Shown here one piece after another: positions 1,193 through 8,006 of a stretch of 8,006 nucleotides of DNA. A program made the translations under genes and the position numbers. Numbering within the stretch: position 1 is the first letter of the stretch; the number at the start of each line of letters is the position of its first letter. The notes beneath the pieces are model-generated. The model had not been told where the DNA came from. It saw only the letters and a list, made by a program, of their open reading frames with translations, and ran no database searches. The stretch comes from Promethearchaeota archaeon (GTDB taxonomy: Archaea; Asgardarchaeota; Thorarchaeia; Thorarchaeales; Thorarchaeaceae). The DNA lies in NCBI GenBank assembly GCA_027031765.1, contig JALVPN010000141.1:1-8006 (forward strand), in the 5' to 3' direction.

Positions 1193-2421
1193 CTAGGAGT
1201 CCCTGCGTCCCCACAGACCCAGCATGACCGGCAATACGACAAGGACGACCACAGACCCCGAGACTGTCAGTGCTGCTGCCACTGGTGACACCGGTGTCGC
1301 GGGTCTCGGGAAGTTGTCCACCGCGTGGCCAGGGCCCGGAATGATGTACTTGGCACGACCATCGTACGGTGCCCACATGTTCCCTGTCCGGGTGCCGTCG
1401 TCCCACCTGTTGTCCCCGCAGGCATCAAGTGCATTCCCTGCCTGGTTCCAGACGAAGACATTGTCGTAGATACTGTTGCCTGTACTGTCTGCTTCAACAG
1501 CGACCCCATAGAGGCCATTCCTGGTGAGTGTGTTCCCGACCACGGTGACGCCCGTACTCCCAAGGAGCCAGACCCCGTTCCCCGCGTTCGCGGACACGTT
1601 GTTTCCGACCACCTCGGTGTCTGCAGATGCCGCAACCCGGATGCCTGTACCGGTGTTCCCGACAACCACACTGTCGCGCACCCGGCACGCCTGTGTCGAG
1701 GTCAGGAACACCCCCGAGTGCATATATGCCGTGCCTGCCGGCGGGGACGCACCATTGCCGGTCACCTCACACCTGACCACTTCCACCCCACGTGACGAGT
1801 GCACATAGACCCCTGAAGAGGCGCTGTCCCTGACCGACGAGTCCTCGAGCACACAGTTGGCACAGCCCGTAGAGAACACACGCCATTGCCACAGCCCACG
1901 GCCGTGATGTCTGAGAGGGACACGCCCTGGGATGAGACAATGCGCACCCCGTACGTGGAGCCGTTCGCAACAAGACCGCGGACTGTACACTGGCGTGCAC
2001 GCCTGAGCACCACCCCGTCAAGACCGCCGTCCACACGCAGGCCCTCGACAAGGACATTCTGTGCGTTGACCAGTGCAAGACCAGCACCCGTGTCCTGACC
2101 CGCGACCACAATGACGCAGTCGCGCACCTTGAGGTGCAGGCTTGTGTCCGAGACCGAGATGCCGGTACCGTTGGTCTCGATCAGGAGACCCTCGATCAGA
2201 TACGGAGAGGACGGGCTCCCATCACCGGGCCACCCACCCGCTGAGAGCTCGTCGTCCGAAGCGATGACCACAGGCGCATGGGGCACCAGTCCGTCGGCCC
2301 ACCCGGCAGCCGTAGCCGCTGGAGAGGACCGGACACTGCCCCCACCAGGTTGTATGGCACACAGTATGATAAAGGAGAGTACGAGCAGGGCCAGCGGTGG
2401 CCTCAACGATACCCCGGTCAT
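1193..2421 (-). pseudogene. Secreted, C-terminally membrane-anchored parallel beta-helix (NosD/CASH-repeat) surface protein, split by a 2-nt frameshift at about 1876-1881 (true pseudogene or sequence error)
   Basis: The 5' half (ORF 1762..2487, likely start ATG 2421) has a hydrophobic signal segment (RPPLALLVLSFIILCAIQP), an HAPVVI...GWPGDGS..SPYLIEG motif and 22-aa G-V-x-x-x-x-S-x-x-x-x-L repeats. The 3' half (ORF 1193..1990) continues the repeats, then WDDG..GNMW..YDG...Y.IPG....VDNFP and a TM helix followed by basic residues (VVVLVVLPVMLGLWGRR). Each ORF looks protein-like only on its own side of about 1880. Confidence 0.8.
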
Positions 2422-2444
2422 CAACTCACCAGTGGTGGCGGCAG

Positions 2445-2457
2445 TTTTATCCTTTCG
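2445..2457 (-). promoter_or_regulatory. Candidate archaeal BRE/TATA promoter (CGAAAGG-ATAAAA) for the beta-helix gene
   Basis: This is a rare AT-rich patch in a GC-rich intergenic region. ATAAAA lies 24-29 nt upstream of ATG 2421 and is preceded by a purine-rich BRE-like CGAAAG, a spacing that fits a leaderless transcript. The match to the TATA consensus is imperfect. Confidence 0.4.
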
Positions 2458-2515
2458 CGTCGACCGAGCAGTCCCCCAGTCCACCACCTACAGGGTGACA
2501 ACCTACAGCACATAG

Positions 2516-2542
2516 AAAAAATCGGGGGAGGGGAGGTGGGTG
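2516..2542 (-). terminator. Candidate archaeal oligo(T) terminator of the hdr operon
   Basis: The minus strand reads CACCCACCTCCCCTCCCCCGATTTTTT, a pyrimidine-rich tract ending in T6 (A6 at 2516-2521 on +), about 65 nt after the tusA stop. Confidence 0.45.
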
Positions 2543-2585: not shown

Positions 2586-2822
2586 CTACTTGACAGACTC
2601 GAAGTAGAGGGCCCACTCCCCGTCGAGGTCTTCAACTGCAATGAACCTGTGCTTGGTCTTGGCCACCTCGCGCTGCACAGACTCCACCGCCGGAGGGTGG
2701 TCTATGAGCACCCGCAGGATGTTGCCCGGCGGCGTCTTCATCAGGGCCTTCTTGGTCCTGAGCGCTGGGTATGGACAGACCTGTCCACGCACATCGAGTT
2801 CGACATCGTAGTCAATAGCCAT
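2586..2822 (-). CDS. tusA: TusA/SirA/YedF-family sulfurtransferase (sulfur carrier)
   Basis: LDVRGQVCPYPALRTKKAL carries the family CPxP active-site motif, followed by G.ILRVLIDHPPAV; about 78 aa. ATG 2822 has a strong GGAGGT SD 8 nt upstream. An alternative ATG at 2846 overlaps the upstream stop (ATGA). Confidence 0.88.
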   Translation of the reverse strand: MAIDYDVELDVRGQVCPYPALRTKKALMKTPPGNILRVLIDHPPAVESVQREVAKTKHRFIAVEDLDGEWALYFESVK

Positions 2823-2830
2823 GTGTCTGT

Positions 2831-2836
2831 ACCTCC
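2831..2836 (-). promoter_or_regulatory. Shine-Dalgarno site GGAGGT for tusA
   Basis: GGAGGT followed by 8 nt and then ATG 2822. Confidence 0.7.
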
Positions 2837-2842
2837 AATGAG

Positions 2843-3883
2843 TCATTGTATGGCCGACCAGAGGAGCCTGTAGGGGTCCCCCGGGTCGTCACCTGATGAT
2901 ACGATACCCATCTGTCTCAGTACGAGCAGGTGATAGAGCACCTGCCCTGTTGGCGCGTCCAGCCTTGCGGCCAGCTCGTCTGCCGTCACAGCACCGACAG
3001 ACCGCAGCTCTCCGATGACGCGCGTCCTGAGGTCCGGTGTTATGTCAGCGGGTCGATGTGAGGCCTTGCGTGCCTGCGCGGCCTCCACCCGGGACAGGTC
3101 CACATCACCTTCCTCGAAGAGACCGGCACCGATGGCCTCCGCAAGCACCTCCTGACCGCGCTCCGTCAGTGCCAGCACCGTCGTGTAGCCCTTCTGGCTG
3201 CCGGAAAAGCCACACGAGAGGTCTGCATGTACGCCAACAAAGTCGGTGCAGTGTTCACAGCTCTTCATCTTCCGCACCTTGCCGTCCCCGTCCGTGTATG
3301 TGTTCGCGGAACAGAACAGGCCGACTTTCAGGACGCGCACTCCCAGCCTGTCCTCGAGGCGTGACACACCCCGCAGCTCACACGGGAGTCCCACGACAGC
3401 CACTTGCTGGCGCCCGGACTTCAAGACACTGACCAGCTCCGTCATCACACCAGACTGTGAGTACCGTGTGCCGGCGAGGGCGAGCACCTCGGACGGGTCG
3501 GTCACAGTCCTCGCCTCCGGCGCGCGTTTCTCGCCCGCAACTGCAACAACGGCACCGACAGTGCCGGAGCGTAGCAGGTGGCCCAGGAGCGTCGTGACAA
3601 AGCCACCGTTCGATGCACGTTCGAGAACCGCCCCGTCGCGGCTCCTCAGAGAGACCGCCTGTCTGACCTCTGGGAGTCCTTCGCCCAGCTGTTCGGGGTG
3701 GGCCTGTGGGCACAGTTCGAAGCACCTGCCGCAGTGCTTCGCCCCACGGTCCAGGATACACCTCCCTGTGAGGTGTGGCACCCCATCGACCATGGTTATC
3801 GACTTGCAGGTACCGGCGCAGAGGCCACAGCCCTCGCATAGGCCGGCACTGATCACCTGTGAATGGAGCAGCTCAAAGCTCAC
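2843..3883 (-). CDS. FrhB/FdhB/FpoF-family flavoprotein (F420 hydrogenase beta-like) with an N-terminal 2x[4Fe-4S] ferredoxin domain and a C-terminal winged helix-turn-helix
   Basis: N-terminal CEGCGLCAGTC and C-x8-CGRCFELCP. FrhB-type motifs: SNGGFVTTLL, AGTRYS, VGLPCE, GLFC, CEHCTDF..HADLSCG..GS.KGYTTVLALTERG. C-terminal TADELAARLDAPTGQVLYHLLVLRQMGIV matches the ELA..L.......V..HL..L...G.V wHTH pattern. The GTG start overlaps the upstream gene by 11 nt. Confidence 0.85.
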   Translation of the reverse strand: MSFELLHSQVISAGLCEGCGLCAGTCKSITMVDGVPHLTGRCILDRGAKHCGRCFELCPQAHPEQLGEGLPEVRQAVSLRSRDGAVLERASNGGFVTTLLGHLLRSGTVGAVVAVAGEKRAPEARTVTDPSEVLALAGTRYSQSGVMTELVSVLKSGRQQVAVVGLPCELRGVSRLEDRLGVRVLKVGLFCSANTYTDGDGKVRKMKSCEHCTDFVGVHADLSCGFSGSQKGYTTVLALTERGQEVLAEAIGAGLFEEGDVDLSRVEAAQARKASHRPADITPDLRTRVIGELRSVGAVTADELAARLDAPTGQVLYHLLVLRQMGIVSSGDDPGDPYRLLWSAIQ

Positions 3884-5129
3884 ATGACCACTCCCTTATC
3901 AGACCGTTCTCGTCTGTCGTGAATGACACCTTCGTGAAATCGTCCGAGGCCTCACCTCGCACTGCACGCACCTCCACCGGCCCCGGGACAGCGTAGGCCT
4001 CATATGGTGCGTCAGAGGCCTTGACGGGCGTCCTGAAACCACCAAAGAAGACATTCGACATCACGTCGTTCCCACCAATGGCACGGGCCTGTGCCACTGC
4101 CTCGCTGTAGCGTTCAAGGTCAGGGGCACCCCTCAGCTCCCTTAGCACGCGCTGGACCTCACGGAGGCGGCCACGGAGGGCCACGGTCTCCGGTGATGGC
4201 TCAATACCGACCGCAGACTCGTAGGCCTCGACAAGGTTCAGGCACACAGAGATCCCGTCCAGCCCGTAGACCGTTGCTGCCAGCTGTGGTGCCTCCTCGA
4301 TAGGACGGCCCACCATGATGTCGGCATGGAGGCTGCCTGCGCTGGGCTGCCGGCCGGGGAGCCTGAATGCTGTCGCCAGCGTGAACCTGAAGAACGTCCC
4401 GACAACATCTACGAGCCCCTCGGTAATCCCGTCAGGGCCGTCGCCCAGCATGTCTGTGGTCCACTCTGACGCCTCTGTGTGGACATCGACATCGGCGGCG
4501 AGAGAGCCGAAGTAGCCAATCATGCTGGCAGACGGGTCTGCAACACTAGGCACGCAGCCCCTGCATGGAGCACCAAAGTCGACACACCGCTGGGCACAGT
4601 CGAGGGACACAACGCCAGAACACGGGATGCCCTGGTTGTTCATGCACTCGGACGGCGCGGGCACTGACAGCGGCCTTACAATCTGCCCCATCCGTTCAGG
4701 CTTCATAGTGCGCTCGCAGGTCTCGCAGAGCGGACGCCGCTCCCCGGGACCGCCATCGAGGGCGGCCTCAAGTTGCTCCACTGATGGGGGACAGCCGTAG
4801 ACCGCGGTGTCGACGTCGATGGTGTCGGCCAGGGCAATGATGTCCGCACCCTTCTGACGGGCAAGACCGAAGACACCCCCGGTCACTGGACACGTACCAT
4901 ACGCAACAAGGATGTCGTAGTCAACACCCTGCACACGTTGGATGTCGTCAGTAGTGGCAGCACCGGTGACGACCAGGACATCCACATGGCCCACCGACTC
5001 GGGCCCTGGCAGGGAGGGCAACAGGCTGTGAGAACGCAGCTCATAGCCGTCGAGGCCACCGACTGCGAGCGTCTGGAATGCACAGCGGTCACAGCCGCCA
5101 AGCTGTAGCACTGCAACAGACCTACTCAA
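3873..5129 (-). CDS. mvhG: MvhG-type [NiFe]-hydrogenase small subunit fused to a vestigial, non-catalytic MvhA-like large-subunit fragment
   Basis: GCDRC, YGTCP..GG and GCPP give the proximal cluster ligands. LCETC, ECMNNQGIPCSG and DCAQRCVDFGAPCRGC give the medial/distal ligands. DVVGTFFRFTL matches the MvhG C-terminal signature. The extension contains GRPIEEAP, IGG...GGF and GEASDDFTKVSFTTDENGLI. The likely start is TTG 5129, overlapping the mvhD stop; the ORF track gives GTG 5156. Confidence 0.85.
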   Translation of the reverse strand: MSRSVAVLQLGGCDRCAFQTLAVGGLDGYELRSHSLLPSLPGPESVGHVDVLVVTGAATTDDIQRVQGVDYDILVAYGTCPVTGGVFGLARQKGADIIALADTIDVDTAVYGCPPSVEQLEAALDGGPGERRPLCETCERTMKPERMGQIVRPLSVPAPSECMNNQGIPCSGVVSLDCAQRCVDFGAPCRGCVPSVADPSASMIGYFGSLAADVDVHTEASEWTTDMLGDGPDGITEGLVDVVGTFFRFTLATAFRLPGRQPSAGSLHADIMVGRPIEEAPQLAATVYGLDGISVCLNLVEAYESAVGIEPSPETVALRGRLREVQRVLRELRGAPDLERYSEAVAQARAIGGNDVMSNVFFGGFRTPVKASDAPYEAYAVPGPVEVRAVRGEASDDFTKVSFTTDENGLIREWSCEL

Positions 5130-5520
5130 CCCTTGCAGCCCCCAGACAGTCCTCACCGTCAGCCTTCGCAGCGACGTCTTCGAAGTCGCCGAGTGCCGTG
5201 TCGCCCTCCGCAGCCCTCGAGGTGTACATCGTCACACAGTCCATACTGTAGCCCATCTCTTGGAGGAACTTCTTCATGATCTTCATCTTCCGCAGCGTGA
5301 CCATGTTCGCGTTGCTGTAGTGACAGGCACCAAAGCAGCAGCCCACCACCGACACGGCCTCTGCACTGTTGTTGATGGCCGTGAGCACCTCCCGGGGGCC
5401 GACACGCCCGGCACACGGTACGGGCACGATACTTATCCGCGGGTCATACTCCATGCGCAGGACGCCGGCAGTGTTCGCAGCCCCCTGGCCACAGTGCTCG
5501 CACATGAACACAACAATCAC
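5122..5520 (-). CDS. mvhD: Hydrogenase/heterodisulfide reductase [2Fe-2S] subunit MvhD (FlpD-like)
   Basis: IVVFMCEHC..AANTAG..RMEY, VPCAGRV and VVGCCFGACHY..AN match MvhD motifs. The GTG start overlaps the hdrA stop (GTGA), with SD GGGGGTGAT 5 nt upstream. Confidence 0.92.
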   Translation of the reverse strand: MIVVFMCEHCGQGAANTAGVLRMEYDPRISIVPVPCAGRVGPREVLTAINNSAEAVSVVGCCFGACHYSNANMVTLRKMKIMKKFLQEMGYSMDCVTMYTSRAAEGDTALGDFEDVAAKADGEDCLGAARVE

Positions 5521-7520
5521 TGTGTATCACCCCCTGTTGCAGCCGCATCGGCGCTCAGCAGCCCGATGACCTCGGCACGCAGCTGGTAGTCCCTGAAGTT
5601 GCGCACCTGAATCGCACCGGTGGGGCACGCTGGCACACACAGACCGCAGCTCTTGCATGCGGCGTCGTTGACCACTGGGAGGCCGTCCTCACCGATGTTG
5701 ACTGCACCAATCGTGCACGTGGCCATGCAGGCCATGCACTTGATGCACAGTTGCGGGTCTATCTCAGCGGTGTCCATCCGCTTCTCAAGGTACCCCTTGA
5801 CCAGTGGCTGTGCAGCGGCTGAGGCAGCACCACCGGCATGGGCAACGGTCTGGGTGATGTCCTTCGGCCCCTGCACCGTGCCCGCAAGGTAGACGCCATC
5901 ACGACTGGAACGCACCGGGCCCATCTTGATGTGGAACTCCTTGGCAAAGCCCTCCTTCACGCGGAGCAGCTGCAGCTTGCCACCGAGCTTGCCGAAGCCC
6001 TTGGGTGCGACCATGCCGGCTGACAGTAGCACCAGGTCAGCCTCGATGGTCATCGGCCTGCATGCAAGTGTGTCCTCGACCTCGACCAGTATCTTCCCCG
6101 TTCTCGGGTCCGGAATGAGCTCTGCCGGCCGCCCCCGGATGAACCTGACGCCACGTTCCTGGGCCCTCTTGTAGTACTCCTCGTAGTGGAGCCCCGGGGC
6201 CCGGATGTCGATGTAGCAGAAGTAGACATCGGTGTCCGGCAGGTGCTCCTTCACCAGCGAGGCGTTCTTGAGGCCGTACATGCAGCAGACGCCCGTGCAG
6301 TACGCGTTGCCCACCTGCTCGTTGCGTGACCCGACGCACTGCACCACGACCACGGTCTTGGGCACCTTGCCGTCTGAGGGGCGGATGATCTTGCCGCCAG
6401 TGAGGGTGGTCGGTGCCATCATCCTCTCGAACTCGAGCTGAGTGATGATGTCTGGTGACTCGTAGTGGTAGGTCACGATCTCTGTGGGGTCGTACTGTTC
6501 GTAGCCCGTAGCAACAATAATCGTACCGACCTCGAACTTCCGCTTCTCCTTCTTCATGGAGAAGTCGATTGCCTCCACCGGGCAGACGGCCCTGCACGAA
6601 CCACAGTCGATACAGTGTCGCATGTCCACGGTGAACACTGATGGCAGGGCCTGTGGGAACGGCTTGTAGACCGCCTTGCGCAGGCCAAAGCCCATGTCCC
6701 ACTTGTTGGGGAGCTCCACAGGACAGACCTCTGCACAGCGCCCACAGGAGGTGCAGTTGTCATGGACGAACCGCGGCTGTGTGGTGACCTCCACTATGAA
6801 GTTACCCATCGAGCCCTCCACATCCGTGACCTCACTGAGCGTGAGCACCTCGATGTCAGGGTGGTTCATCACGCCGTTGAGCAGTGGGCTTATGGTACAC
6901 ATGGGGCACTCGTCAGTGGGGAACGTCTTGTTCAGCATGGTCATGTGACCGCCAATGGACGGCTCACGCTCCACCAGGACCACCGGGATGCCGAGCTCGG
7001 CAACGTCCATCGCAGCCCGCAGTCCCGCAACGCCACCGCCAATCACCATCACGCGCTTCGTCACCGGGATCTTGGTGGTCTCCACAGGCTCTACAAGTCT
7101 GGCTCGGGCAACGGCACCTGCCACCAGTCGTTTCGCCTTGCGGGTAGCCTCCTCCCTGCTCTCTGTCACCCACGAGTCCCACTCACGGATGTTGCACTGT
7201 ACGTGCTTGTGTGGGTTGAGGCCCTTCTCGGCAATGGCCGTGGCGAAGGTCGCCCAGTGCTGCTCTCTTGAACAGGAGGCGACCACGGTGGCTGTCAGGC
7301 CGTGCTCCTCCACGGCCCTCTTCACGAGCTCCACGCCCTGTTTTGAACACATGAACAGGTAGTCTGTGGCGTACTCCACATTGGGGAGGCCCCTAGCAAA
7401 ACGGGCCACCTCAGCCACGTCCACCTTACCGGCGATGTTCTCACCACAGTGGCATACGAAGACGCCCACCCGCGCCTCCTCGGAGGACCCGTCCGCAGCG
7501 GCAGGCCGTGCACCGGTCAC
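5517..7520 (-). CDS. hdrA: Heterodisulfide reductase flavoprotein subunit A
   Basis: RVGVFVCHCG, VIGGGVAG (FAD), SIGGHM..LNKTFPTDECPMC, an inserted ferredoxin (CTSCGRCAEVCP, CIDCGSCRAVCP), QLEFERM, QCVGSR....NAYCTGVCCMYGLKN, GVYLAGTVQGPKDI and a C-terminal ferredoxin (CIKCMACMATC, CKSCGLCVPACP). The start is reassigned from ATG 7673 to GTG 7520 because the extra 51 codons overlap hdrB and the intergenic spacer. Confidence 0.95.
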   Translation of the reverse strand: MTGARPAAADGSSEEARVGVFVCHCGENIAGKVDVAEVARFARGLPNVEYATDYLFMCSKQGVELVKRAVEEHGLTATVVASCSREQHWATFATAIAEKGLNPHKHVQCNIREWDSWVTESREEATRKAKRLVAGAVARARLVEPVETTKIPVTKRVMVIGGGVAGLRAAMDVAELGIPVVLVEREPSIGGHMTMLNKTFPTDECPMCTISPLLNGVMNHPDIEVLTLSEVTDVEGSMGNFIVEVTTQPRFVHDNCTSCGRCAEVCPVELPNKWDMGFGLRKAVYKPFPQALPSVFTVDMRHCIDCGSCRAVCPVEAIDFSMKKEKRKFEVGTIIVATGYEQYDPTEIVTYHYESPDIITQLEFERMMAPTTLTGGKIIRPSDGKVPKTVVVVQCVGSRNEQVGNAYCTGVCCMYGLKNASLVKEHLPDTDVYFCYIDIRAPGLHYEEYYKRAQERGVRFIRGRPAELIPDPRTGKILVEVEDTLACRPMTIEADLVLLSAGMVAPKGFGKLGGKLQLLRVKEGFAKEFHIKMGPVRSSRDGVYLAGTVQGPKDITQTVAHAGGAASAAAQPLVKGYLEKRMDTAEIDPQLCIKCMACMATCTIGAVNIGEDGLPVVNDAACKSCGLCVPACPTGAIQVRNFRDYQLRAEVIGLLSADAAATGGDTQ
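5526..5534 (-). promoter_or_regulatory. Shine-Dalgarno site GGGGGTGAT for mvhD
   Basis: It lies within the hdrA 3' end, 5 nt before GTG 5520. Confidence 0.65.
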
Positions 7521-7581
7521 GTCATGCGCACTGCTCTCCCCGTGGGACTCGCTCCTCTGCTCCTGCCTGTCCTTCTCCTTT

Positions 7582-8006
7582 TTATCCTTCTTCTTCGTCT
7601 TCGTCTTCGTCAAGAGGGGCCGCCTCCAGCTTGAAGTCACTTGCTGTGACCTGGTACTTGATACCGACATCATCCATCCCCATGCAGAAGGCCACGAGCT
7701 GGGAGATGTGGATCACAGGGATGTTGAAGTCGGTCCCGTACTGTTCGTTGAGTGTCTTCTGCCCGCCATCAAACTGCAGGTGACAGAAGGGGCAAATGTC
7801 GATGATAGCCTCGGCGTCGCTCTCGGCAATTGCGGCCATCTTCTCGCCCAGCATCTTCATTGACGTGTCAGCATGAGCTGCCTTGACGCCGCCACCAGCA
7901 CCGCAGCAGGCGTGCTTCCGCCGGTAGTCCACACACTCCACTCCGAGGGCCTCGAGGAAGTCCTCAAGTATGGTCGGGTCCTCGGGGTCGTCAATCTGTT
8001 TGATAT
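7582..8006 (-). CDS. hdrB: Heterodisulfide reductase subunit B, C-terminal part (CCG domain); 5'-truncated by the window edge
   Basis: The frame is open from the window end (IKQIDDPEDPTILEDFLEALGVECVDYRR). CCGAGGGV and DICPFCHLQFD are CCG-domain/non-cubane cluster motifs; IPVIHISQLVAFCMG follows. Stop TAA at 7582-7584. Confidence 0.93.
   Translation of the reverse strand, partial: IKQIDDPEDPTILEDFLEALGVECVDYRRKHACCGAGGGVKAAHADTSMKMLGEKMAAIAESDAEAIIDICPFCHLQFDGGQKTLNEQYGTDFNIPVIHISQLVAFCMGMDDVGIKYQVTASDFKLEAAPLDEDEDEEEG
7588..7611 (-). repeat. Short purine microsatellite (GACGAA)3(GAA)2 encoding the acidic tail DEDEDEEE of HdrB
   Basis: Read directly from the sequence: gac gaa gac gaa gac gaa gaa gaa, just before gga taa. 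Confidence 0.7.

Follow-up and report, generated by a model that had tools for sequence, protein, structure and literature searches.

A hydrogenase small subunit fused to a vestigial large subunit in a conserved Asgard heterodisulfide reductase operon: a candidate nickel-free electron-bifurcating complex

Asgard archaea are the closest relatives of eukaryotes and lack methanogenesis cofactors. What the heterodisulfide reductase (Hdr) does in these microorganisms is an open question when the metabolism of the eukaryotes' archaeal ancestor is modelled, and operons of the type analyzed here are usually annotated as 'MvhADG-HdrABC hydrogenase'. One such operon lies in a stretch of 8,006 nucleotides (nt), hereafter the window, which opens contig JALVPN010000141.1 of a thorarchaeal assembly (GCA_027031765.1). 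Six open reading frames (ORFs) on the minus strand, encoding HdrB, HdrA, MvhD, a fusion protein starting with MvhG, a FrhB-like protein and TusA, fill the interval 8006..2586. The same six co-oriented genes had been named in a first reading of the letters alone (the sequence-only reading), and the Pfam and NCBIfam assignments agree with it. The locus raises a simple question: is the product a hydrogenase and, if not, from which donor would electrons reach Hdr, and to which acceptor would they go? We think it fairly probable that the operon encodes a nickel-free descendant of the Mvh-Hdr complex, a putative assembly that would feed a bifurcating Hdr.

The fusion gene is made of two modules (coordinates refer to the window; aa, amino acids):

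3873..5156, minus strand: fusion gene, 427 aa; N-terminal Oxidored_q6 domain, VhuG match up to aa 203
4347..5156, minus strand: MvhG part of the fusion, aa 1-270; Oxidored_q6, 12 invariant Cys, Foldseek and VIA structure matches
3873..4346, minus strand: vestigial [NiFe] large-subunit core, aa 271-427 plus stop; VIA, hhalign and profile matches to the Protein Data Bank (PDB)

Twelve cysteines (C22, C25, C89, C122, C144, C147, C171, C179, C187, C191, C198, C201) are invariant in 29 full-length homologues, a set sufficient for the proximal, medial and distal [4Fe-4S] clusters of a three-cluster MvhG. No invariant Cys or His follows C201 in the alignment of the 29 proteins. The full-length fusion was modelled by AlphaFold2 with a pLDDT (predicted score of the local distance difference test) of 79 and a predicted template modelling score (pTM) of 0.84, and the best Foldseek match of the model is the MvhG subunit of the Mvh-Hdr crystal structure (5odi_E, E 3.7e-12). 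In the exhaustive VIA structural search the model splits in two. Residues 10-270 resemble hydrogenase small subunits (5odc_E, Z 14.2, 235 aa aligned within model residues 12-270), residues 274-427 resemble large subunits (FrhA, 6qgt_A, Z 14.4; the [NiFeSe] subunit 4kl8_L, Z 13.5).

The C-terminal part was also modelled alone. The 15 top VIA matches are all [NiFe] large subunits or NuoD/Mbh/Mbs relatives (Z 15.2-9.7), with about 150 aligned residues and Z 15.2 to FrhA; the next unrelated match has Z 5.5. Foldseek, run with this domain alone, gave no match at E <= 0.001, and among the weak matches listed nearly all are large subunits or NuoD-type relatives. The fold is thus assigned on the VIA search, which settled what Foldseek left below threshold. 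Profiles point the same way. That of the C-terminal part matches FrhA in the PDB (aa 45-106, E 0.007), as well as the motif found in the MvhG C-terminal tail of 9sw2_E, and hhalign aligns it to the two MvhA proteins encoded by the same genome (probability 92%, E 6.2e-7, 70 columns). In the latter alignment the nickel-binding L1 residues RICGIC of MvhA face TVYGLD in the stub.

The motifs which define the catalytic large subunit of a group 3c [NiFe]-hydrogenase (L1, RxCGxCxxxH; L2, DPCxxCxxH) are missing from the fusion protein, and the Pfam family NiFeSe_Hases (PF00374) has no match in the stub or elsewhere on this contig. About 155 of the roughly 440 residues of a large subunit remain, devoid of metal ligands; the Ni-Fe site is lost. 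Conservation of the stub equals or exceeds that of the whole protein (mean column identity 60% vs 53%), and on this ground we regard the stub as kept for a structural role, and not as decaying. By analogy, it is probably a structural cap for MvhG only. It presumably takes the place which a second large subunit would need for docking. The claim that mvhA has been replaced in place by a dead remnant, fused to a full MvhG, was therefore correct, the remnant being a Cys-less core of about 155 aa behind 12 cluster cysteines.

Proteins of this type are found in Asgard archaea only. A word-indexed search with the fusion protein retrieved 48 clusters, 411-431 aa long when complete, all labelled Thor-, Hermod- or Promethearchaeota. 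The profile of the C-terminal part, run against 1.84 billion representative proteins, matched 27 at E <= 0.001, mostly family members or fragments; the final two of the list look like genuine large subunits, weakly matched in the L1 region at the detection limit. When one genome per species was scanned, 185,579 species in all, 73 fusion loci were identified, all in Asgard metagenome-assembled genomes (MAGs). Neighbouring genes were counted by tblastn with the window proteins against the 73 loci, denominators being the loci with enough flanking DNA:

MvhD, upstream of the fusion: 70/70 loci
HdrA: 60/60 loci
HdrB: 56/56 loci
HdrC: 53/53 loci
FrhB-like gene, directly downstream of the fusion: 68/68 loci
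TusA, after the FrhB-like gene: 61/65 loci
DsrE/DsrH/DsrE2 genes in the locus: 50/65 loci

No mvhA gene was found within the 73 clusters. The synteny search across Asgard genomes, which the sequence-only reading had put forward as its own check, thus revealed an almost invariant gene order. The usual Loki-type order is AsnC (opposite strand), then TusA-DsrE-DsrE-DsrH-DsrE2-HdrC-HdrB-HdrA-MvhD-fusion-FrhB::GltD-TusA; the Thor-type order is AsnC (opposite strand), then DsrE-HdrC-HdrB-HdrA-MvhD-fusion-FrhB-TusA, in some cases followed by DsrE-DsrE-DsrH. In a tree of the fusion proteins, rooted with the canonical MvhG of the same genome, the family is monophyletic (100/100).

The remaining features of the operon in the window are the following:

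7582..8006 (ORF 8004..7582), minus strand: C-terminal part of hdrB; CCG domain 57 bits, TIGR03288 142 bits
5517..7673, minus strand: hdrA, long methanogen type; NCBIfam HdrA2 756 bits over aa 68-705
5122..5520, minus strand: mvhD, [2Fe-2S] connector subunit; PF02662 FlpD 104 bits, VhuD 81 bits
2843..3883, minus strand: frhB-like gene, Fe-S flavoprotein; FrhB_N 56 bits, FrhB_C 70 bits, N-terminal Fer4
2879-3061, minus strand: winged-helix-like domain of the FrhB-like protein, aa 275-335; Pfam matches below cut-off
2586..2846, minus strand: tusA, with the Cys-Pro active-site motif; PF01206 76 bits
2516..2521, minus strand: run of six T, candidate archaeal terminator, read from the sequence, 65 nt past the tusA stop

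Genes are tightly packed. ORF coordinates give a 4-nt overlap at the hdrA/mvhD junction, an 11-nt overlap at mvhG/frhB, and an ATGA overlap at frhB/tusA; the first two overlaps had been read from the letters as well, the last as one of two alternatives, the other being a 20-nt gap. The mvhD/mvhG overlap reported along with them depends on the start codon: it measures 35 nt with the longest ORF, and becomes a 10-nt gap if mvhG starts at the GTG in position 5111, the start which matches a 412-aa database entry of the fusion protein. The T run (2521..2516) had been proposed as a candidate terminator of the operon, and is present; a scan for bacterial-type hairpins found no terminator of that kind after tusA. 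The six genes had also been taken for one operon. The close, co-oriented junctions sustain this view, but the window cuts the operon, and further genes lie upstream on the 12-kb contig: hdrC, a dsrE-family gene, and next a divergent gene for an AsnC-type regulator. The full order is AsnC-type regulator (divergent), dsrE-hdrC-hdrB-hdrA-mvhD-mvhG::vestigial mvhA-frhB-like-tusA. Upstream of dsrE, tblastn showed an ORF of 205 aa to be conserved in Thor-type loci, but it was discarded, being the antisense frame of the regulator gene.

The source assembly measures 2.95 Mb and is 95% complete; GC content is about 62%. The nearest named relatives of the window proteins are encoded by Candidatus Thorarchaeota MAGs, at about 50% identity, and the only public sequencing run which contains the source DNA is a hydrothermal-vent metagenome, probably its origin, no RNA run being listed. 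Downstream of tusA two overlapping NosD/beta-helix ORFs are found on the minus strand in different frames (1762..2487 and 1193..1990, spanning 1193-2487), which seem to be a single surface beta-helix gene broken by a frameshift or an assembly error. They hold the position of dsrE-dsrE-dsrH in other Thor-type loci. The interval 2-1150, on the plus strand and convergent with the 3' end of the operon, encodes the C-terminal part of a FadH/OYE-type Fe-S flavoenzyme (tail of Oxidored_FMN plus Pyr_redox_2), for which the best NCBIfam models score far under their cut-offs.

The Hdr subunits are those of a bifurcating enzyme of the methanogen type. Complete hdrB encodes 298 aa with two CCG stretches and extends to contig position 8478, a scaffold gap of 10 N (contig positions 8007-8016) falling inside the gene. 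HdrC carries a dicluster domain, and HdrB with two CCG domains plus a ferredoxin-type HdrC is the combination which marks methanogen-type bifurcating HdrABC. HdrA contains the flavin adenine dinucleotide (FAD) Rossmann fold and four Fer4 stretches detected by Pfam and NCBIfam, and belongs to the long, bifurcating type, defined by an FAD domain together with N-terminal, inserted and C-terminal Fe-S domains; its HdrA2 score of 756 bits is below the equivalog cut-off of 1100, and the protein is to be seen as a relative, not as an equivalog. Translation of hdrA may start at the ATG in 7673 or at a GTG in 7469 placed behind GAGGAGG. The longest ORF adds a Lys-rich N-terminal extension of 68 aa, and with it hdrA shares 92 nt with the 3' end of hdrB. 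Since homologues measure 650-675 aa, the GTG, giving 650 aa, is the likely start. MvhD adjoins the small-subunit gene, as in group 3c enzymes.

The FrhB-like protein contains an N-terminal 2x[4Fe-4S] ferredoxin domain, a FAD/[4Fe-4S] core, and a winged-helix-like C-terminal tail. FrhB_N and FrhB_C are above the Pfam cut-offs in 31/31 members, which places the protein in the FrhB/F420-reductase family. In the short form, to which the 31 sequences belong, little or no variation is seen in the eight cysteines of the ferredoxin domain, the four of the core (C168, C191, C209, C212), or the SNGGFVT and GTRYS motifs. The winged-helix matches (aa 275-332) are weak, under the Pfam cut-offs. Hence the FrhB::wHTH protein of the sequence-only reading stands as an FrhB/FpoF-type Fe-S flavoprotein encoded next to the fusion gene, whereas its tail is backed by sub-cut-off matches.

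The best sequence relatives in the PDB are 8riu_B and 8rja_E (E 2e-24), the F420-reductase subunits found on the CODH and Fwd complexes of an ethane oxidiser; the F420H2-oxidase domain of Fsr and FrhB come next. Plant HCAR, a ferredoxin-dependent enzyme, is a distant relative. In the CODH complex the F420-reductase subunit features an N-terminal 2x[4Fe-4S] ferredoxin anchor, a FAD/[4Fe-4S] core and a C-terminal extension, and FrhB modules act as F420 reductases in both CODH and Fwd complexes (PMC11493965). The window protein is built in the same modular way as these subunits (Ca. Ethanoperedens CODH/Fwd, 8RIU/8RJA; Fsr, 7NP8), but is about 40-55 aa shorter, ends in the winged-helix-like tail, and belongs to a different partner complex.

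Loki-type orthologues are much longer (806-822 aa), and align to aa 1-202 and 209-334 of the window protein. Exactly between residues 202 and 209 they host an insert of about 485 aa, made of Fer4_20 and Pyr_redox_2, which is a NAD(P)H module of the GltD/NfnB type. The winged-helix-like tail is common to short and Loki-type forms. Where flanks were sufficient, the long form was counted in 56 loci and the short form in 9, and the window carries the short form. In the fusion-protein tree the Thor-type clade is entirely of the short form, and short is also the first Loki-type branch (L049); on this basis the short form is probably ancestral and the GltD module a later gain, a tentative view because branches are long. 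Three Hermod- or Hod-labelled loci of the Loki-type clade (L042, L048, L081) have a short FrhB-like gene, and a second hdrC-hdrB pair after tusA.

Which donor the FrhB-like subunit uses may differ between the two forms. The presence of an inserted GltD-like NAD(P)H module in most orthologues indicates that NAD(P)H is probably the donor there, i.e. in most Lokiarchaeia, and only in forms with the module. For the Thor-type short form, homology suggests F420H2. Searches of this genome, 95% complete, retrieved neither CofG nor CofH nor CofD, and CofH reaches the cut-off in 0/18 genomes of the same family, but does so in four other Asgard families. The genome encodes an F420-type methylene-tetrahydromethanopterin dehydrogenase (Mtd, 320 bits) and two CofE-like ligases (C27:2374-3213, C59:13940-14578, C77:18380-19030), and thus pairs an apparently F420-dependent enzyme, Mtd, with no visible FO/F420 synthesis route. 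The F420H2-like input first proposed for the complex does not fit well with the missing CofG, CofH and CofD and with the NAD(P)H module of most orthologues, Mtd and CofE notwithstanding. A separate GltD-like partner of the short form was sought and rejected, as the two GltD-like genes of the genome (C109, C47) sit in other contexts, unlinked to the operon. That in C109 (9332-13255) is part of a 944-codon HdrA-like frame, with a GltD-like module of the Fer4_20 plus Pyr_redox_2 type in its middle, followed by hdrC and hdrB. The insertion is of the same kind as in Loki-type FrhB-like proteins, but lies within HdrA.

The assembly that we favour was drawn by analogy, chiefly with Elp-Hdr but also with Mvh-Hdr (5ODC) and Frh (4OMF). 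A two-electron donor would be oxidised at the FAD of the FrhB-type subunit. Electrons would then move through the three [4Fe-4S] clusters of this subunit to the three clusters of MvhG, to the [2Fe-2S] center of MvhD and to the flavin of HdrA, where bifurcation would send one branch to ferredoxin and the other to the HdrBC site. The distal cluster of the small subunit is the one touched by FrhB in Frh, and MvhD uses that same end in Mvh-Hdr. Invariance of all 12 cysteines is compatible with entry of electrons at the proximal end, and no proof of it. The predicted complex of MvhG fusion and FrhB-like protein, both given as alignments, scored 0.01 (mark 0.32), which speaks neither for nor against binding.

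The MvhAGD-HdrABC complex of hydrogenotrophic methanogens (5ODC/5ODI, 9SW2) shares with the Asgard operon the subunits HdrA, HdrB, HdrC and MvhD along with an MvhG of three clusters, and the gene order agrees too; its MvhG is the best structural match of the fusion, and the MvhG C-tail motif is common to 9sw2_E. In contrast, the Asgard operon lacks a catalytic MvhA, replaced by the Cys-less core of 155 aa fused to MvhG, and has in addition an FrhB-type flavoprotein and TusA/DsrE genes. FrhAGB (4OMF, 3ZFS, 6QGR) similarly pairs a three-cluster hydrogenase small subunit with FrhB, and no structure matches the stub better than FrhA. Frh differs in having an active Ni-Fe site and neither Hdr nor MvhD, electrons moving from H2 to F420.

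By analogy, the closest functional counterpart is Elp-Hdr. This complex of Methanothermobacter marburgensis, formed by a truncated, molybdopterin-free FdhA (ElpA), an FdhB-type F420H2-oxidising ElpB, and the MvhD homologue ElpC, replaces Mvh under nickel limitation; its structure was solved at 2.2 A, and both the donor, F420H2, and the acceptor, the heterodisulfide of coenzymes M and B (CoM-S-S-CoB), were shown (PMC12350162). The two systems have in common a nickel-independent input to a bifurcating Hdr, a flavoprotein of the FdhB/FrhB type, a dead, truncated catalytic subunit as scaffold, and an MvhD-type connector. The Asgard scaffold, in contrast, derives from a hydrogenase small/large pair and not from a formate dehydrogenase, as ElpA does, and the Asgard genome yielded no CofG, CofH or CofD for F420 synthesis. 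At the family level the window flavoprotein is a homologue of ElpB, judging by Pfam FrhB_N and FrhB_C and by a match to 8rvu_E at E 1e-9. No Fdh-type gene, the hallmark of ElpA, was found in the window or in related loci. The sequence-only reading knew of no analogue keeping a full MvhG wire with a pseudo-large subunit. The principle is the same in Elp-Hdr, but there the vestigial subunit is FdhA, not MvhA.

On the acceptor side, which the sequence-only reading had underplayed, almost every genome has TusA/DsrE sulfur carriers joined to the cluster. On gene content, HdrB most likely acts on sulfur, or on a disulfide, borne by the TusA/DsrE proteins of the same operon; CoM-S-S-CoB is unlikely, since the TusA/DsrE genes of the cluster suggest another one. 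Elsewhere in the genome a second TusA, 72% identical to the window TusA, is encoded at C222:14749-14976, and a tandem DsrE-family pair at C35:4520-5228; they may be the sulfur-relay genes which adjoin the operon in related genomes. An Hdr linked to sulfur carriers has been proposed for an Asgard enrichment culture, with a real group 3c hydrogenase assumed as donor (bioRxiv 10.1101/2025.07.22.663070).

Several points weigh against the assembly outlined above. The residues which the short FrhB-like form lacks with respect to solved F420-dependent relatives (about 40-55) are missing at the insertion site, aa 202-209. As CofG, CofH and CofD were not found, supply of F420H2 is doubtful in this lineage, and the short form features no other recognisable donor site. 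Where the FrhB-like subunit docks, and hence whether all three MvhG clusters would serve as a wire, is argued by analogy, and invariant cluster ligands could be kept for stability alone. Finally, the S0/H2S couple, near -270 mV, is low for an acceptor meant to drive bifurcation from NAD(P)H or F420H2.

Sulfur couples of such low potential favour, in turn, the same assembly working mainly in the oxidative, confurcating direction. HdrBC would oxidise sulfur or thiols on the carriers together with reduced ferredoxin, and electrons would leave through MvhD, MvhG and the flavin of the FrhB-like protein to F420 or NAD(P)+, a mode functionally nearer to the sulfur oxidation of sHdr. FrhB modules working as F420 reductases in CODH and Fwd complexes fit this direction. 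So do the TusA, DsrE, DsrH and DsrE2 genes which flank the operon in most loci, as such carriers serve sHdr systems (PMC11094781, PMC4175335). Hdr-type genes are clustered in sHdr systems with TusA, DsrE and DsrE2/3-type sulfur transferases, as in Asgard loci, but sHdrA is short and non-bifurcating, and needs LbpA. The Asgard HdrA is instead of the long, bifurcating methanogen type, flanked by a separate MvhD, by MvhG and by the FrhB-like gene, so that the operon does not belong to the sHdr class. Moreover, no lipoate-binding LbpA/GcvH-type gene is listed within 8 kb of the loci L009, L011 and L013. We judge a mainly oxidative function unlikely, yet worth keeping in mind. A different comparison is offered by FlxABCD-HdrABC of Desulfovibrio, in which a flavoprotein of the NAD(P)H type delivers electrons through an MvhD-like subunit to HdrABC, and the sulfur carrier DsrC is the proposed acceptor. 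This system differs from the Asgard operon in being bacterial, in having no hydrogenase-derived subunits, and in using other carrier proteins.

Could the fusion still serve a hydrogenase? PF00374 finds five large-subunit-like genes in the genome. In C115 the order HdrA-MvhD-MvhG-MvhA is followed, 19 nt past a truncated mvhA, by a VhuU-like gene of 50 codons (C115:4907-5059), which carries the second nickel-binding motif with an in-frame TGA (RCYDC-TGA-LSCGAH); by sequence, this locus probably encodes an intact, selenocysteine-containing split [NiFeSe] hydrogenase of group 3c. A second MvhD-MvhG-MvhA cluster (C107:2324-3715) has a large subunit which stops before the L2 motif, and the next 400 nt downstream encode no VhuU-like peptide. 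C91 and C127 encode large subunits with both motifs, C12 a Cys-less relative, and HypD is encoded as well. The check for a separate, intact mvhA and for hyp genes, suggested by the sequence-only reading, was accordingly positive for MvhA and HypD, but each MvhA cluster has its own MvhG and MvhD.

An intact MvhA, such as the C107 copy, which ends before L2 with no VhuU peptide nearby, might nevertheless dock on the fusion in trans and make the complex H2-dependent, HypD and the two MvhD-MvhG-MvhA clusters being at hand. This is very improbable. Each intact MvhA adjoins an MvhG and an MvhD of its own; the stub is covalently fused, folds in the model (pTM 0.84) as a large-subunit core, and would occupy the docking site; mvhA is missing from all 73 clusters, while the FrhB-like gene is next to the fusion in 68/68. 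Least probable of all is a reading in which neither protein takes part in a working electron path, the FrhB-like one acting, through its winged-helix tail, mainly as a redox-sensing regulator, or the fusion gene being a decaying relic, as weak C-terminal winged-helix matches and loss of the catalytic site could suggest. Those matches fall under the Pfam cut-offs; neither protein varies in its cluster ligands, and conservation of the stub is high; 73 species keep the ORFs intact and translationally coupled; and the locus already has its dedicated AsnC-type regulator.

In full-text literature searches, neither the MvhG::vestigial-MvhA fusion nor the operon as a nickel-free complex was seen to be described. 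For an Asgard Hdr linked to TusA/DsrE these searches found one preprint only, which assumes a true group 3c hydrogenase (bioRxiv 10.1101/2025.07.22.663070). Electron-input modules for bifurcating Hdr are already known in kind; new here are the Thor-type short form devoid of the NAD(P)H module, the rooted tree, the F420 gene-content check and the count of 73 species.

One conserved Asgard Hdr operon cannot be a hydrogenase; a likely electron-input module can be named for it, specific sulfur carriers are linked to it, and its donor and acceptor become directly testable. After Elp-Hdr, it provides a second independent case in which the catalytic subunit is reduced to a scaffold once an FrhB-type flavoprotein takes over the input. 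It is conceivable, though rather doubtful, that in an ancestral Asgard enzyme a group 3c hydrogenase became a metal-free wire, made of MvhG with the 155-aa large-subunit relic as its cap and fed by a plug-in FrhB-type flavoprotein, with Hdr reducing the sulfur of TusA/DsrE. If true, this would be an Asgard-wide, previously unrecognised way of making reduced ferredoxin, and the Thor-type short form would use a donor other than NAD(P)H although F420 synthesis is not recognisable in the lineage, pointing to cofactor scavenging or to an unknown substrate.

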